A stretch of DNA of 64,000 nt from positions 22,780 through 86,779 of the forward strand of contig JANNVJ010000137.1 in the NCBI GenBank assembly GCA_031414375.1. The letters run 5' to 3'. The notes under the pieces were generated by a model. It did not search any database. It saw only the letters and a program-made list of their open reading frames with translations, and was not told where the DNA came from. Both the position numbers and the translations under genes were made by a program. Below, piece by piece: positions 1 to 36,429 of this stretch (position 1 is the first letter of the stretch; each line of letters opens with the position of its first letter). The DNA comes from Haliea sp. Lineage in GTDB: Bacteria; Pseudomonadota; Gammaproteobacteria; Pseudomonadales; Halieaceae.

Positions 1-916
1 CCAGATTGCTTTTGATGCCAGAGGGCAGCATTTTGAACAGCTTGGCGCCAACCAGGTCAGCCACTAGTTCGCCGCCGGCCTCGATGCTGCCAGTCAGTGC
101 GCCAGCCTTCATGGACTCGTCATGCACTTGTTCGTCGGTCAGGTCGGGATTGGTTGCGCGGGTTTCTGCATACACCTTGTCGTAGGTGTCCTTGGCTTGA
201 TGGCCGAAAAACAGCGGCAGTGCCAACAATGAACCGCCGACAAAGCCAGCTGCGGCGCCGGGCAATCCACCGACTGCGGCGCCTGCGACCGCACCAGCGA
301 TCCCGGGACCAAAGCTCAACGGCAGATTCTTGCCCGCCTCGAATGATGCTCCGCGCGCGCTGAATGCGTCTTGCTCCTGCATCTGGCGGCCAAACTCGGA
401 CTGCTGCCAGTTCTCGCCACGCTTGGCGCCTGCCTCGCGGGTTTCCCGGGCCCACTTGGAGAATACGCCTTCATCACCTTGATTGTTGCCAGCGGCGTCA
501 AAGGTCGGCGTATCAGCAAAGTCAGCCAGGCCTGCAGCTGCATCGGGCAGATTCTGGACCACGCCCGCAGCTACACCGCGGCCGAAATCCTTCACCCCCT
601 CAACGAAACCGGCGGCGCCTTTCGGCCTTTCTATCTTGGTCGGGTTTTGCGGGACAGCCTGGCTCGCGGTTGCTGGGCGGGCCAGTGCGTTCGGTGACGT
701 TACATTGGAATCCTGATTAACGGCGGCGGCAGCCGGATCGGCTGGCTTGGGAAGGGTTCTGGCATCCCAGTGCTGTCGAGCAGCGCCCAAATCACCGGGC
801 GCAATTGTCGGGGCAATGTTCTGGTCAAAGTATCCTGCGCGGGATTTCTCTTGTTCTTCAGCGGGAAGTGCTTTGAATTCTTGAGAGCCAGATAACTCGG
901 TCCACTTCAGGGGCAT
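1..916 (-). CDS. Large DNA-ejection (internal virion) protein, N-terminal part; continues off the left edge
   Basis: Not in the ORF track. ATG at 916 after AAGGAAAG; open to base 1: MPLKWTELSGSQEFKALPAEEQEKSRAGYFDQNIAP...GPGIAGAVAGAAVGGLPGAAAGFVGGSLLALP. The Gly/Ala hydrophobic stretch and terminal position are typical of podovirus ejection proteins. Confidence 0.8.
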   Translation of the reverse strand, partial: MPLKWTELSGSQEFKALPAEEQEKSRAGYFDQNIAPTIAPGDLGAARQHWDARTLPKPADPAAAAVNQDSNVTSPNALARPATASQAVPQNPTKIERPKGAAGFVEGVKDFGRGVAAGVVQNLPDAAAGLADFADTPTFDAAGNNQGDEGVFSKWARETREAGAKRGENWQQSEFGRQMQEQDAFSARGASFEAGKNLPLSFGPGIAGAVAGAAVGGLPGAAAGFVGGSLLALPLFFGHQAKDTYDKVYAETRATNPDLTDEQVHDESMKAGALTGSIEAGGELVADLVGAKLFKMLPSGIKSNL

Positions 917-929
917 CAGGCTTTCCTTA

Positions 930-2291
930 TTAGAAAAAAGTATCGACTTGTTGCTGTGCGCCAGTCGCAGCCGTTTGCTGCTTCTGCACTAATCGTCCAC
1001 TTTCATCTAACTGCGGGATGCCCCCATCCAGCTCGAGTGATGATAACAGACGCTGCACTACCTGGGACATTGATTCGCCGGAAGCTGGATCAAATTGTTC
1101 GCCCGACATTGCCAATAACTGCGAGTAGGCTTCAGGCGCGGTGGTTTTGAGCGGAGCCAGAGCATCGCCTGCTTCCTTCATTGCAGCTGTGCGATTTAAC
1201 CGCACATCGGTCTTGGCATTACGGTTCATGTCGTACTGCTGCTTGAACGCGGCCAGCTGGGCAGTGGCAGTGGCAGTATTCGCATCGGCATCCACATTGT
1301 AGGAGCCAGCGGGATCCGCTTTGTAGGCTGCGCGCTGCTCTGGCGTCAGGCCTTGGTCGCTCAGTTGCTGGGTGATCACATCGAGGTTCTTGCCCTGCTC
1401 GGAACTGGCGATCTGCGCGTTGGCCAGTGCCTCACTTTCTGCACCGCCGAAATGGCGCCGGCCATCACTGCCAGTGGTATTGGCGGTGTAATCTGCGCGC
1501 GCCTGAGCCACCTTGGCGGCCTCAGCTGCCTGTGCTTCGTAGGACTGAGGCGATACCGGCCTGTTGAAAGCGGTGTTCGCGTCCGAAAACTCAGGCACAG
1601 CTTTTCCGGTATTTGGATTCATGATTGGCCTGCCATCAGCGCCGATCGTGGGGCGTACCAGCGTCTGTGTTTCGCCCTGCTGGCCGGCATAGCCGTATTC
1701 GCTGTTGGGTATTGGCGCCGGGTTCGCGGCATTTACCTGGCTACTGGACGGCGCAGCATTGGCGGTGGTGTAGGCGTCTACCGCTGCCTCCGGGTTTGGC
1801 CGGGCCAAAGTCGTGGCCGGCTGTTCCTGGGCAGCTGCTGCGGCCGGAGCAATGCCGGGCGCTGTGTTTGGCCGCTGGATATTGGGATTCGCGGTGCCGT
1901 ATTCTGCTACGGCCGCGCTCGATACCGTGGGATCCTCGGACAACATACGGTTTTGGAGATCATCGACGCCCATAGCACTGGTCGCGGCGTTGACGATCGG
2001 GCGCTGGATGGCCTGCGCAGTCTCGGTGTCTTTCACTGCGTTGCCAGCAACGGCCGCGCCAGTCGCCGCCAAGCCCAAAGGGCCGGCCGCGCGCACCGCA
2101 AAACGCCCGACACCCTTGGCAACGGCCATTCCGCCAGCCCTTGCCGCGATAGGCCGGGTCAGTGCACCAGCCACCTTTGAGCCTACATTTTTCGCCACCG
2201 CAGCACTTCTCGCAGCAACAGAGGGGCGCGGGATAGCTTTCGGTCGGGTTGCCTGAATGTTCTGGCGCAATTGTTCTTCGTAAAGCGACAT
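930..2291 (-). CDS. Putative ejection/pilot protein (453 aa)
   Basis: Ala/Gly-rich N-terminal hydrophobic segment, low-complexity Pro/Ala middle, located between tail genes and the large ejection protein. Confidence 0.6.
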   Translation of the reverse strand: MSLYEEQLRQNIQATRPKAIPRPSVAARSAAVAKNVGSKVAGALTRPIAARAGGMAVAKGVGRFAVRAAGPLGLAATGAAVAGNAVKDTETAQAIQRPIVNAATSAMGVDDLQNRMLSEDPTVSSAAVAEYGTANPNIQRPNTAPGIAPAAAAAQEQPATTLARPNPEAAVDAYTTANAAPSSSQVNAANPAPIPNSEYGYAGQQGETQTLVRPTIGADGRPIMNPNTGKAVPEFSDANTAFNRPVSPQSYEAQAAEAAKVAQARADYTANTTGSDGRRHFGGAESEALANAQIASSEQGKNLDVITQQLSDQGLTPEQRAAYKADPAGSYNVDADANTATATAQLAAFKQQYDMNRNAKTDVRLNRTAAMKEAGDALAPLKTTAPEAYSQLLAMSGEQFDPASGESMSQVVQRLLSSLELDGGIPQLDESGRLVQKQQTAATGAQQQVDTFF

Positions 2292-32936: not shown

Positions 32937-33673
32937 GAGTATTTGCCCTCAAGTACGCCGATGACGGATTGCTGTTTAATCAGGAAATCGAAACTCGCAC
33001 GCCAGTCTTTCACTCGGCCCATCAGGAAATCGGATCGACTGACCGACTTGAAATACCCAACCCAGTTATCTAGGTCGCGCTCCATGGTTTGCCGGTGTCT
33101 GGCAGCAATAGATTTTTTTCGCGCTTCAGATAACTCAACGACGCGTGGTAGTCCCTCGCAGTGATCGTGGTAGGCATCAATGATTTTTGAGTACGGTGTC
33201 GGGTCAGCCTTCGCAGAAGGTGACGTAATCTGTTCTTTATTGGTTCTTGGTTCTTGGTTACTGGTTACTGGTTCTTGGTTAGCTATCTCTTTGGTTTGGT
33301 TTTGGTTAGCTAATTTAACCGAGTTGGTTTTTCTGGGTTTTAATGGTCTGCCGCCCTTACTGCCATTAGCTTTTGCTGTAATCGAGCGCTTCTGATATGC
33401 CGCTATTTCTATCTCTATTCGTCCGTGACACCATCCGTTTTCTGTCTCAATGAAGTATTCTTGCAGGACATTTAAAAGATCAGGTTCGTTTTCGGATACC
33501 AAACGTAACCGACGCAAAACCAGCTGGGTTATTTTGGGTATCAGCTTTTCATCGAGGTAATACCAGTCCATTAACTCCCGATAGATGTAATGCTCTATTG
33601 GGGATAGGTGCTGAGTATCTTTGCGGTAATCGGCAATATTGAATTGGTAGTAATGCAACCCCTGCCCCTTCAT
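32933..33673 (-). CDS. Replication initiator (YdaU/DUF1376-type N-terminus)
   Basis: HYYQFNIADY..DT.HLS..EH.IYR.L.D.YY; C-terminal WRASFDFLI...VLEGKY; start at 33673 (ATG) or 33658 (TTG). Confidence 0.85.
   Translation of the reverse strand: MKGQGLHYYQFNIADYRKDTQHLSPIEHYIYRELMDWYYLDEKLIPKITQLVLRRLRLVSENEPDLLNVLQEYFIETENGWCHGRIEIEIAAYQKRSITAKANGSKGGRPLKPRKTNSVKLANQNQTKEIANQEPVTSNQEPRTNKEQITSPSAKADPTPYSKIIDAYHDHCEGLPRVVELSEARKKSIAARHRQTMERDLDNWVGYFKSVSRSDFLMGRVKDWRASFDFLIKQQSVIGVLEGKYS
33241..33282. repeat. Six tandem 7-bp repeats inside the initiator gene; probable origin iterons
   Basis: TGGTTCT TGGTTCT TGGTTAC TGGTTAC TGGTTCT TGGTTAG. Confidence 0.75.
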
Positions 33674-33955: not shown

Positions 33956-34174
33956 TCAGGCGACGGCGCTATCTGATGCATAAAGATCAGGACGCAGCAT
34001 GGCTTGAGTAATGCTCGGGTCGGCTTGGCATAAGCGCGCGATGATTGACGCTCCAGCCTTGCGATGACCGCCGGCCAGCTGGGCCAGGTAGTTCGCAGGG
34101 GTGCCTGCCCGCAGAGCAAGGTCGAGTTTTTCTTCTGGCTTTAAAGTCTGCCAATAGGACTTGAATGCGTTCAT
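33956..34174 (-). CDS. cro: Cro-like repressor
   Basis: HTH (LALRAGTPANYLAQLAGGHRKAG); divergent from cI; start re-called to MNAFKSYW. Confidence 0.85.
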   Translation of the reverse strand: MNAFKSYWQTLKPEEKLDLALRAGTPANYLAQLAGGHRKAGASIIARLCQADPSITQAMLRPDLYASDSAVA

Positions 34175-34182
34175 GCTGTGAA

Positions 34183-34246
34183 ATTTAGCAAAGGCTAAAT
34201 ATAAAAGCAAGCATTTGCTTGTTGTTAGATTTAGCGGACGCTAATA
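34183..34246. promoter_or_regulatory. oR: three 18-bp operators at 23-bp spacing with back-to-back pR and pRM
   Basis: ATTTAGC-AAAG-GCTAAAT (34183), AGCAAGC-ATTT-GCTTGTT (34206), ATTTAGC-GGAC-GCTAATA (34229); pR TTGCTT-17-TAAATT (minus), pRM TTGTTA-17-TAACCT (plus). Confidence 0.85.
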
Positions 34247-34257
34247 ACCTCCCTTCG

Positions 34258-34986
34258 ATGGGAAGAAGTAATATGGAAATTGAAACGCAGCGCTACCGAA
34301 AACAAAAGCTGTCCGAATTGGTAGCTGATCGTCACGACCCAAACGGGCGCGGCGGTACAGCCAGGCTGGCAAACGATCTTGATAGATCGCCTGGATACAT
34401 CTCCCAAATGCTGAAATTCGATGGTGACGGAAGCAGGCCAATAACTGAAAAAACTGCACGAGAAATAGAGGGTAGGCTTGGGCTTGAGCGCGGATGGTTT
34501 GATGACCACCCACCCATACATGGACGCACTGCAAATCAAATAACTTCAAGCAAGGATGCTATCGTGATACCACTACTGGATGTTGCTGCTGCCATGGGAT
34601 CTGGCATTGATCGTCCGGCCGGTCATGTCGATGTGATTGAGCAAATGGTTGTCAGCAAAGACTGGTTGCGAAAAAACATTTCTGCCACCAGCCCAGGCAA
34701 TCTGGCGATCATTACAGCTTACGGCGACTCCATGGAAGGCACGTTCAATGATGGTGATCTACTGTTGGTAGACCGTGGAATTACCGACATAAAACTGGAT
34801 GCCGTCTACGTCCTGGCGCTCAATGACGAACTGTTTATCAAGCGCCTGCAGCGCCGTCCGGACGGTGTAATGCTGATGCTTTCTGATAACCAAAAGTACG
34901 CGCCATACGAAATAAAAAACGGCGATATGGCGCATTTTGAAGTGCTGGGCCGGGTGCTATTGACCTGGAATGCCAGGCGGCTTTGA
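34258..34986 (+). CDS. cI: CI-like repressor (HTH + S24 peptidase)
   Basis: LANDLDRSPGYISQ HTH; GDSMEGTFNDGDLLLVD and LFIKRL autocleavage motifs. Confidence 0.95.
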   Translation: MGRSNMEIETQRYRKQKLSELVADRHDPNGRGGTARLANDLDRSPGYISQMLKFDGDGSRPITEKTAREIEGRLGLERGWFDDHPPIHGRTANQITSSKDAIVIPLLDVAAAMGSGIDRPAGHVDVIEQMVVSKDWLRKNISATSPGNLAIITAYGDSMEGTFNDGDLLLVDRGITDIKLDAVYVLALNDELFIKRLQRRPDGVMLMLSDNQKYAPYEIKNGDMAHFEVLGRVLLTWNARRL

Positions 34987-34996
34987 CATAAAATTT

Positions 34997-35443
34997 ATGG
35001 AAAAAATAGTAACCCTGATGATCGCTCTGATGGTTGCTTCATTTTTTTCAGCAGCCGCATTCGTATGGCTATGGGAACCACAATCCTACGATGAATGCAT
35101 TATAGAAGAATCCTCAAGGTTTCAAGGACCGGCGCCAAGCGGCGCAATATACTCAGTACAAAGAGTGTGCCGAGAACAATTCCCACATAAAACAGCGCCA
35201 CCTACACCCCAAATAGAAGCTATTGCGTGTAATCCCCCGCCTACTACTGGGCCAGCAGCAAGACGGTGGATAAAAATAATCACATCAACTGAATTCCGCT
35301 TTATGCCAGAATTTATGCGGATTAATGAAAGGGATAAATATATAAAGGGAGTGATAGCCAGAAATCCAGATAAAGACCCAGTAGAATCCAAGAAAATACT
35401 TTTGGAAAGCACAACCCCGCCACGCTATGTTGCGTGCCCTTGA
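34997..35443 (+). CDS. Membrane-anchored protein co-oriented with cI; candidate superinfection-exclusion protein
   Basis: N-terminal TM (IVTLMIALMVASFFSAAAFVWLW), Cys pairs, AT-rich; C-terminal segment aligns with the N-terminus of the ejection protein at 1-916. Confidence 0.6.
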   Translation: MEKIVTLMIALMVASFFSAAAFVWLWEPQSYDECIIEESSRFQGPAPSGAIYSVQRVCREQFPHKTAPPTPQIEAIACNPPPTTGPAARRWIKIITSTEFRFMPEFMRINERDKYIKGVIARNPDKDPVESKKILLESTTPPRYVACP

Positions 35444-35477
35444 GCAATTATATGTGACTAAAAACAGGGAGAAAATC

Positions 35478-35858
35478 ATGCGAATTATTTTCGTGTTGTT
35501 TTTTTTGATGGCCAATATAGCGCACGCCGAGGTTTTTAAGTGCGTTGATGAATCAACAGGTAAAACCACATTCACCGACACGGCGTGTCCTGACAAGCGT
35601 GCTGGAAATTATATTCCTGTTAGAACTGCAAATGGCGATTCTGGATCTGCCGCCGACCTTATTGAATATCAGCGCCAAGAAAACGAGGCGTTGCGCGCCC
35701 AGTTAGCTGAACAAAAGACCCCGCGGAAACTGACCAGAAAGGAAAGGGATGATCTTTTGAGACAGAAGCTAATTCTCCAAGAAAAGCGCACCACAAGAAC
35801 AACCTGCCACAGTGATAGCTATCGTTACGGCATTTCCACACAATGCACAACGCGCTGA
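35478..35858 (+). CDS. Secreted DUF4124-like protein
   Basis: Signal peptide, then AEVFKCVDESTGKTTFTDTACP; RBS AGGGAG. Confidence 0.7.
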   Translation: MRIIFVLFFLMANIAHAEVFKCVDESTGKTTFTDTACPDKRAGNYIPVRTANGDSGSAADLIEYQRQENEALRAQLAEQKTPRKLTRKERDDLLRQKLILQEKRTTRTTCHSDSYRYGISTQCTTR

Positions 35859-35864
35859 TCAAAT

Positions 35865-36095
35865 ATGCCTAAAGAACAAAGCCTTGACTCTCAAACCGCA
35901 ATTGCACTTACCGCCTTGGCGTCCGCTCTTGTTCGCCAGTCCTCAATCGACGGGCAAAAACTGCGAATGGATTTTTTAGACATCCTCGAAGGGCTTTGCG
36001 GAGGCCCTGAAAATGTGGGGGAAGTTGGACAGGGTGCCGCTCTGTTGATGCAGCGCTTTCTTGCAACCGACGCAGATAATCCTCCACCTGTTTGA
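35865..36095 (+). CDS. Hypothetical protein (76 aa)
   Basis: Third gene of the cI-downstream cluster. Confidence 0.5.
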   Translation: MPKEQSLDSQTAIALTALASALVRQSSIDGQKLRMDFLDILEGLCGGPENVGEVGQGAALLMQRFLATDADNPPPV

Positions 36096-36168
36096 CATAT
36101 AGCTCCACCTTCGTGTCACTCATGTAATCCGCCCTCTGATTTAATCCCAAGATCAGTATATTTAATAT

Positions 36169-36212
36169 ATTTAGCAAATGCTATTGACTGAATATTTATC
36201 ATTTGCTAAATT
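36169..36212 (+). promoter_or_regulatory. oL/pL: two operators overlapping a near-consensus sigma70 promoter
   Basis: ATTTAGC-AAAT-GCTATTG (36169), ATTTATC-ATTT-GCTAAAT (36194); TTGACT(36184)-17-TAAATT(36207). Confidence 0.85.
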
Positions 36213-36255
36213 TACCCAAGTCGGCGCCATCGGAGGCCCGGTAAGGGAGAGAAAA

Positions 36256-36429
36256 GTGGACAACACTCAAAGGGTCAGTGACCCAATCTGCAACAAATGC
36301 AATCAACCCTGCAATGTTCGGATTGTCGAGGAACCCACCTACGACAACGGCATAACGGTGTTTTACCAGGAGGTTGGTGTTTCCTGGTGCTGTGGTGCCG
36401 ATTACTCGAAAGCGGGGGTGGCAGCATGA
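36256..36429 (+). CDS. Small Cys-rich protein, first gene of the pL operon
   Basis: GTG start after GGGAG; CNKC...WCC. Confidence 0.55.
   Translation: MDNTQRVSDPICNKCNQPCNVRIVEEPTYDNGITVFYQEVGVSWCCGADYSKAGVAA

Follow-up and report, generated by a model that had tools for sequence, protein, structure and literature searches.

The window described in this work is a stretch of 64,000 nucleotides of contig JANNVJ010000137.1 of Haliea sp., whose source genome is a metagenome-assembled genome (MAG) from freshwater sediment with no 16S gene in its assembly. It contains the lysogeny operon of a temperate phage, in which a small gene located directly after the cI-like repressor encodes a putatively exported protein with a C-terminal module homologous to the N-terminal module of ejection proteins of the type of P22 gene product 16 (gp16), and the same module (gp16N) heads a giant protein of 4009 amino acids (aa) encoded at the left end of the window. 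The features on which the analysis is centered are the following:

34997-35443, plus strand: open reading frame (ORF) of the small protein, from the ATG at 34997 to the stop codon at 35443, 148 aa; predicted exported protein with four cysteines, with a mean predicted local distance difference test score (pLDDT) of 77 in the AlphaFold2 (AF2) model.
34997-35059, plus strand: predicted Sec signal peptide, residues 1-21, with cleavage after AAA as expected from the -3/-1 rule.
35066-35182, plus strand: N-domain, W-x-W-[GE]-P-x-x-[YF]-D-E-C ... V-C-R-E-x-F, with two cysteines; common to P0006, P0007, P0009 and P0010.
35264-35425, plus strand: gp16N-like module, residues 90-143, flanked by Cys78 and Cys147; assigned with hhalign against gp16-type N-termini, pLDDT 87-95.
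34219-34986, plus strand: cI-like repressor of 255 aa with a helix-turn-helix (HTH) region and an S24 autopeptidase (Pfam PF00717, E-value (E) 3.6e-19; transcriptional repressor phrog_4, E 1e-35), first gene of the lysogeny operon.
2-916, minus strand: first 305 codons of the 4009-aa giant, which continues to the left of the window (G000:C137:11666-23695); described by its Pfam domains and by hydrophobic segments at residues 200-239 and 361-380.
749-907, minus strand: gp16-type N-terminal module, residues 4-56 of the giant (hidden Markov model (HMM) of 24 IMG/VR N-termini, 62.8 bits, E 7e-17).

The ORF of the small protein starts 10 bp past the stop codon of the S24/cI-like repressor, on the same strand. 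An alternative in-frame ATG at position 34970 would overlap cI, and the start at 34997 was favoured because the homologues all begin at the equivalent methionine. Both the limits of the gene and its location next to cI had been correctly recognised in the original prediction, and the position in a repressor operon was found again in two other phages.

When about 1.8 billion representative proteins were searched exhaustively with phmmer, only three full-length relatives of the small protein were retrieved (P0002, P0004 and P0005), and P0013, P0014 and P0015 were added by a later profile search, the family having seven members in this collection. P0008 and P0011 were rejected as members, as repeat proteins and chance matches. 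A search for related loci with the family alignment gave no relative in IMG/VR and, in the genomes collection, only the P0005 locus of a Porticoccus MAG. Megablast and tblastn searches of the gene against the phage collection produced no match, and nothing was found in the Protein Data Bank by sequence search with the small protein.

The only hydrophobic stretch of the small protein comprises residues 1-28, with hydrophobic 19-mer windows (Kyte-Doolittle value of at least 1.4) starting only at residues 1-10. All seven members contain a small-x-small (AxA-type) signal-peptidase site (AFA, LQA, SQA, ASA, TNA or AAA), which is placed 1-3 residues ahead of the conserved W-x-W-G-P-x-x-[YF]-D-E-C motif. 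The stretch is probably a cleavable Sec signal peptide rather than a membrane anchor and, because this site precedes W-x-W-G-P in all members, the mature protein is more likely to be soluble in the periplasm than tethered by a transmembrane (TM) segment, as it had been described previously. Four cysteines are invariant in the family, two of them in the N-domain, another one before the module (A-C, residue 78) and the last one at the penultimate position (Y-V-x-C, residue 147). Since the module is flanked by invariant cysteines, a disulfide bond that staples it is suggested, and this staple would fit a periplasmic location.

The N-domain is separated from the C-terminal helical module by a Pro-rich linker, and it was also found in further exported proteins (P0006, P0009 and P0010), either by itself or repeated, P0009 and P0010 carrying tandem repeats without the module. 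In P0007 (97 aa) the N-domain is followed by only the first half of the module (22 bits). The four-cysteine family VF_A0006 of NCBIfam (NF041602) is weakly recognised by P0009 (56.7 bits, below the cutoff of 65), which is only a distant relative through the N-domain, and the small protein of the window gave no match to this family.

The similarity between the small protein and the ejection protein had been proposed from an alignment made by eye. This alignment was reproduced by BLASTP, in which residues 90-121 of the small protein matched residues 4-35 of the product of 916(-) with 9 identities in 32 positions (21 bits, E 0.011 for a single pair), but it is not significant by itself: the same Smith-Waterman score against the 305 visible residues was reached by 236 of 2000 shuffled sequences, and a higher-scoring chance alignment of the small protein exists elsewhere in the full giant. 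Significance was obtained with family profiles. When HMMs of the C-terminal domain were compared with all 64,674 six-frame ORFs of the genome, the only non-self match corresponded to residues 4-56 of the giant, with E-values of 0.0034 (all four sequences), 0.015 (window protein left out) and 0.022 (only P0004 and P0005), and its score was never reached in five genome-sized decoy sets. Chance matches of 15-17 bits to unrelated proteins arise when 400 genomes are searched.

Profile-profile comparisons with hhalign were clearer. The small family aligned with the IMG/VR modules with a probability (Prob) of 96.0% and E 3.9e-9, the alignment built from all seven members gave Prob 97.7% and E 1.4e-12, and the comparison with the N-termini of five annotated P22-like gp16 proteins, which had not been selected by pattern, gave Prob 96.4% and E 1.1e-9. 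In all three comparisons 54-55 columns were aligned in the same register as in the alignment made by eye. The pattern used to collect the IMG/VR modules was designed partly from P0004 and P0005, and for this reason only the columns that it does not fix were re-scored. In this masked-column test the z values were 5.5 for P0004 (0 of 20000 permutations), 3.9 for P0002, 3.7 for P0005 and 2.1 for the window protein (p 0.026). Structure prediction of both segments with AF2 was also in agreement. The module of the small protein was modelled with helices at residues 86-95, 98-101, 105-122 and 128-139 (pLDDT 87-95), and the first 100 residues of the giant, folded as a single sequence, with helices at 5-9, 12-16, 19-37 and 40-54 and a disordered remainder. 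Both segments show the same arrangement of two short helices, a long one and a further one. At an offset of 86, which places W91 on W5, the positions of three helices out of four match, and helix 1 of the small protein extends about five residues more in the upstream direction. On the basis of these profile comparisons, homology between the C-terminal module of the small family and the gp16-type N-terminal module is regarded as established.

The small protein of the window is the most diverged member of the family, and its own assignment to the gp16-type N-module depends on the family as a whole and, by transitivity, on P0004, P0005 and P0013-P0015. The HMM of viral N-modules gave 40 bits for P0004 (E 8e-10 at genome scale), 31 for P0005, 9 for P0002 and 8 for the window protein, so that distant relatives resemble the N-terminus of the giant more than the protein encoded in the same phage does, as can be seen in P0014 (...FFDQHVAPRA...SEWDKQTIP) when compared with the giant (...YFDQNIAPTI...QHWDARTLP). 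The small protein had been considered a copy of a domain of the phage's own ejection protein, and this was not borne out by the counts of identities, which were 12 between the module of the window and its own giant and 8-14 with foreign giants. Its resemblance to its own giant does not exceed that to foreign giants; the module belongs to an old, separate family and did not arise from a recent duplication. The small family is closer to the giant-type modules of aquatic phages than to the enterobacterial P22-type ones.

The label of ejection protein given to 916(-) in the original prediction is sustained by its N-terminal module. A degenerate pattern (W..[LVI].....[FY]..[LM].....E..R..[YF]FD..[IV]), for which chance matches were roughly estimated as well under one, was searched in the DNA of IMG/VR, and 26 loci were found, all of them (26/26) with the motif within the first 4-45 residues of a large ORF of up to 3569 aa that typically starts with MAKKW... 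Matches to phrog_26400 (DNA ejection protein) and phrog_770 (DNA transfer protein) were obtained with the complete examples. A tblastn search with one module in GenBank phages yielded 55 records, including gene 16 of HK620, ST64T and CUS-3, gene 13 of Sf6 and gp40 of Xfas53. In all the annotations that were checked (HK620 gene 16, ST64T gp16, Sf6 gene 13, Xfas53 gp40 and gp13 of the Proteus phage Brookers) the module is located at the start of gene 16 or its equivalent, and in these phages the gene order is gp20 homologue followed by gp16 homologue. The consensus of the gp16-type module is kWsEVa.S.aFqaL...QkEaaR.QYFD.VVaP...aR.qFd..T.

The Pfam domains of the giant, all above cutoffs, are InPase, LPD1, LPD3, ART-PolyVal and LPD38, and it is a polyvalent protein, with several LPD/effector domains in one very large phage protein. 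Its hydrophobic segments are the only ones in the whole sequence and both are located downstream of the module. It is also the last gene of the internal-protein block, with a gene order as in HK620 and Xfas53. Because its N-terminus belongs to the P22 gene-16 DNA transfer/ejection module, the giant is, judged from its sequence, a gp16-type ejection protein with a polyvalent array as its body; N-module, hydrophobic segments and final place in the internal block are those of whole gp16-type proteins. Beyond the module no similarity of the giant to gp16 was detected. A tblastn search of its first 400 aa against the phage collection gave no match, and a word-indexed search of a 5.8-billion-protein database with residues 1-130 retrieved only the query itself. 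Further giants of 2300-3600 aa with the same gp16-type head were observed in IMG/VR and in Gilvimarinus genomes.

The small-protein gene is located downstream of cI in three temperate phages, those of the window, P0014 and P0004. The gene of P0014 overlaps the stop codon of an S24 repressor of 249 aa, from which a Cro gene diverges, and P0004 is encoded by the last of three genes for signal-peptide proteins that follow a cI-like repressor. The contig of the P0014 phage was walked gene by gene and found to be syntenic with the phage of the window, with lysis genes, a Laminin_G cassette, TerS, TerL, a P22-type portal, genes of 620, 188 and 467 aa, and a giant of 3954 aa. This giant starts with the same module (MSMKWSELTASQEFTALPDDQKEKVRTGFFEKNVAP...AEWDRATLP) and carries a cargo different from that of the window's giant, namely ResIII, N6_Mtase (faint), MuF_C and LPD38. 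The pair formed by an exported gp16N-like protein after cI and a gp16N-headed giant is thus present in both phages in which both regions are visible.

P0005 and P0013 are encoded in the vicinity of integrases, in islands that measure about 12 kb and contain DnaB or primase/helicase, AlpA or HTH, and TerS-like genes, a gene content that makes these islands satellite-like. They come from marine metagenomes and from the Porticoccus MAG (L013-L018, L026 and L075-L077), and one of them adjoins a type I restriction-modification system.

The module was found in only one of 400 other genomes of the class. One carrier, in genome G432, is a protein of 167 aa with the module between two TM helices (54 bits; L056:1306-1986, plus strand), predicted from the charge distribution to lie in a periplasmic loop. 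Its gene belongs to an island adjacent to a tRNA, which also contains NYN, FRG and PIN genes, and two further genes for small membrane proteins come after it; P0017 is a relative of this protein with 74% identity. Another carrier, encoded in a Tepidiphilus MAG (L063:2165-2860, minus strand), is a protein of 231 aa with a signal anchor, the module, which is predicted to be periplasmic, and two TM helices. The gene is directly upstream of a Ser/Thr kinase-tetratricopeptide repeat (TPR) gene on the same strand (L063:540-1997, minus strand), with an adjoining transposase-like ORF. This 231-aa membrane protein may be a candidate envelope sensor of incoming ejection proteins. As the small family and two unrelated membrane proteins carry it, there appear to be at least three independent cases of its placement in the envelope. 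Loci L022 and L023 were rejected as module carriers because they were chance matches in an ATPase and a diguanylate cyclase, and they served as a yardstick for chance scores.

Other features of the window located around the small protein and the giant are the following:

930-2291, minus strand: gene of 453 aa that immediately precedes the giant and occupies the place of P22 gene 20 (periplasmic tube), an assignment based on position only.
33956-34210, minus strand: divergent ORF of 84 aa opposite cI, in a cro-like position, with no Pfam match.
35478-35858, plus strand: second predicted exported protein of the low-GC cassette (DUF4124; Pfam PF13511, E 1.3e-8), with a GGGAGA ribosome-binding site before the ATG at 35478.

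Only a local and weak match was obtained between the 453-aa gene and the corresponding gene of the syntenic phage. The equivalent of the 84-aa ORF in this phage (L071/L078) is a Cro protein (PF09048). The small-protein gene opens a stretch of low GC content (41-47% across about 35000-36350, compared with 50-59% in the flanks). This cassette after cI includes three small genes, two of them coding for predicted exported proteins, the 148-aa protein and the DUF4124 protein, and the third one is an ORF of 76 aa; three exported proteins are encoded at the same post-cI position in the P0004 phage. Inside a 280-aa gene of the replication region, positions 33240-33281 constitute a low-complexity or repeat-like stretch of about 40 bases at which short contigs from other organisms of the same metagenomes pile up.

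A superinfection exclusion mechanism may be proposed from these data. The small protein would be produced in the lysogen from the repressor operon, as suggested by the position of its gene, and exported to the periplasm by the Sec pathway with cleavage of the signal peptide, which would leave a mature protein of about 125 aa. In the virion of the same prophage, the 4009-aa polyvalent ejection protein would begin with the same module. When a related phage superinfects the cell, the exported look-alike would take the docking site of the gp16 N-terminal module, most likely on the gp20-equivalent tube of the incoming phage, and the ejectosome would stall before crossing the inner membrane. Both the binding to the gp20 equivalent and the exclusion are hypothetical.

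In P22, gp16 is ejected into the periplasm, diffuses and acts in trans on the channel of another particle, and it completes the conduit through the inner membrane by docking on the membrane-proximal 'plinth' of the gp20 dodecamer (bioRxiv 10.64898/2026.09.03.749273). AlphaFold3 models pair the PP3 domain of gp20 with residues 1-205 of gp16 (bioRxiv 10.64898/2026.09.03.749273). The gp16 of T7 has a periplasmic N-terminal part, which binds to the gp15 tube (PMC8954989). Exclusion by SieA is escaped through changes in gp16 and gp20 (PMC10883804). Since gp16 docks in trans and within the periplasm, this step could be blocked if a soluble copy of the docking module were present in the same compartment, which makes the decoy idea mechanistically reasonable. 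Consistent with the predicted compartment and with the published biology of P22, the mechanism is considered plausible; as the whole explanation of the small protein, exclusion by an exported dominant-negative mimic of the gp16 N-terminal module is proposed tentatively, with a chance judged to be somewhat below even.

A number of results weigh against this exclusion mechanism. Some positions that are invariant in the modules of ejection proteins (E20, F27-D28, P33 and the [FW]D motif) have been lost in the window protein and in P0002, and for this reason the module of the window may no longer bind the same partner. Co-variation with the cognate ejection protein, proposed as a check in the original prediction, was not seen in the only two pairs available. 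The 453-aa gene has no detectable sequence similarity to the P22-type gp20 of HK620, the evidence on which part of gp16 contacts gp20 is limited to the AlphaFold models of a preprint (bioRxiv 10.64898/2026.09.03.749273), and the elements of P0005 and P0013 contain no ejection protein in their visible DNA. The small protein gave no meaningful match in Pfam, PHROGs, PADLOC or NCBIfam, including any described exclusion or defence family; the only entries were at chance level, a Na+/H+ antiporter subunit D of NCBIfam for the window protein (E 0.082, 11.7 bits against a cutoff of 542) and REase_MTase_IIG of PADLOC for P0005 (E 0.023). A Foldseek search of its AF2 model in BFVD found nothing below E 3, and only DNA metagenome runs, with no RNA runs, were found for the sediment MAG.

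Chance or convergence between two amphipathic helical segments could be invoked from the pairwise alignment, which is not significant alone, and from the 15-17-bit matches to unrelated proteins in the 400-genome search, but this explanation is hardly credible given the hhalign E-values of 1e-9 to 1e-12 across the whole module, the masked-column test, the decoy genomes, the helices in the same register and the recurrence in a second phage. If homology is accepted, the module could still be a general protein-protein or envelope-binding unit also used by ejection proteins, the small protein having an unrelated envelope role such as lysogenic conversion. Such a role would agree with the presence of the N-domain in many non-phage exported proteins (P0006, P0009 and P0010), with the DUF4124 protein carried by the same cassette and with the strong divergence of the window copy from the modules of ejection proteins. 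It is nevertheless judged unlikely, although it keeps an appreciable part of the probability, in view of the rarity of the module in genomes (1/400 others of the class) and of its contexts outside ejection proteins, which were only mobile-element or island-like: cI operons, satellite-like islands, the NYN/FRG/PIN island and the kinase neighbour by a transposase-like ORF.

The two remaining explanations keep a function against incoming phages. HK97 gp15 and T5 Llp act on host entry factors, and by analogy the exported module could mask an inner-membrane or periplasmic host factor used by the N-terminus of gp16, instead of binding the phage tube. The association of gp16 with the membrane and the requirement of the inner-membrane protein YajC for P22 DNA entry (bioRxiv 10.64898/2026.09.03.749273) also speak for this masking. 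It is rated as rather improbable, since no host partner of the gp16 N-terminus is known and the sole structural hint pairs the N-region of gp16 with gp20. A periplasmic sensor, in which the incoming ejection protein triggers abortive infection or signalling and not a passive block, would be in line with the Tepidiphilus module protein, encoded directly upstream of the Ser/Thr kinase-TPR gene on the same strand, and with the location of the G432 version among NYN, FRG and PIN genes. For the window protein, which is predicted to be soluble and has neither TM or signalling part nor an effector partner in the operon, a sensor function is very improbable.

Returning to exclusion by a mimic of the docking module, a wider formulation may be considered, in which exported disulfide-stapled gp16N copies constitute a modular immunity strategy against P22-type podophages, including giant-headed ones. 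These copies would be carried by prophages after cI and also by satellite-like islands, genomic islands and at least two unrelated membrane scaffolds, and they would cap the ejectosome tube in such a way that the inner-membrane channel never forms; this would be the first case of exclusion by means of a fragment of the ejectosome itself. This generalization is rather doubtful, and it is advanced with less confidence than the mechanism proposed for the small protein itself.

To our knowledge, the assembly of the podophage ejection channel across the envelope is only now being resolved, and lysogen blocks of this step have been outlined for very few systems (SieA). Full-text literature searches found no exclusion factor built from an ejection-protein domain, in agreement with the statement of the original prediction that it knew of no description of the decoy mechanism, and no Pfam, PHROG, NCBIfam or PADLOC family corresponds to the small family, to its gp16N homology or to the gp16N-headed polyvalent giants. 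If the proposal is true, dominant-negative mimicry of an ejectosome part would be a new exclusion principle, the natural soluble periplasmic look-alike would provide a ready probe for the gp16-gp20 docking step, and a small exported protein with a virion-protein module would be a sequence signature to find more of these genes. Polyvalent giants can be headed by a gp16-type ejection module, which favours the idea that the ejectosome serves for their delivery.

Among known systems, the closest in sequence are the P22 gp16-type proteins (gene 16 of P22, HK620 and ST64T, Sf6 gene 13 and Xfas53 gp40; phrog_26400 and phrog_770), whose helical N-module of about 55 residues is homologous to residues 90-143 of the small protein. 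Unlike gp16, the small protein has only 148 aa, is predicted to be exported and carries the module in a C-terminal position between two cysteines, without the hydrophobic and C-terminal parts of gp16, and it is encoded in the immunity region and not in the virion operon. The features of whole gp16 proteins (N-terminal module, large virion protein, membrane-active segments and gene after gp20) are absent from it and, by its domain composition, it is a domain relative of gp16 and not an ejection protein itself. The giant shares several LPD/effector domains with the polyvalent proteins of phages and conjugative elements (Pfam LPD families) and differs from the others in its array, which has a gp16-type module at its head and two hydrophobic segments after it; this arrangement ties the polyvalent array to the ejectosome.

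Prophage exclusion at the step of DNA entry is already known from SieA, Sp (Spackle) and Imm of T4, HK97 gp15, Ltp and T5 Llp, and T4 Sp binds the virion-delivered gp5 lysozyme. Like SieA of P22, the small protein is prophage-encoded, would be located in the envelope and would have P22-like phages as targets, its expression and specificity being predicted. Interference with the gp20/gp16 conduit is the action presumed for SieA. Unlike the small protein, SieA is a polytopic inner-membrane protein whose gene lies between genes 16 and 9 (PMC10883804), and it has no reported homology to ejection proteins. The HXS system has been described as a case of periplasmic gatekeeping of DNA entry (PMC13128918). 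T4 Sp and HXS resemble the proposed role as exported periplasmic factors that stop DNA entry, and differ from the small protein in that they are not derived from a component of the blocked phage and have no sequence relation to it. Virus-derived dominant-negative restriction factors, in which the host or a provirus expresses a copy of a viral structural or entry component that interferes with incoming relatives, are represented in animals by Fv1, Fv4 and enJS56A1. The biology of these factors is entirely different, and for the small protein, whose function is a hypothesis, they constitute a conceptual analogue only.

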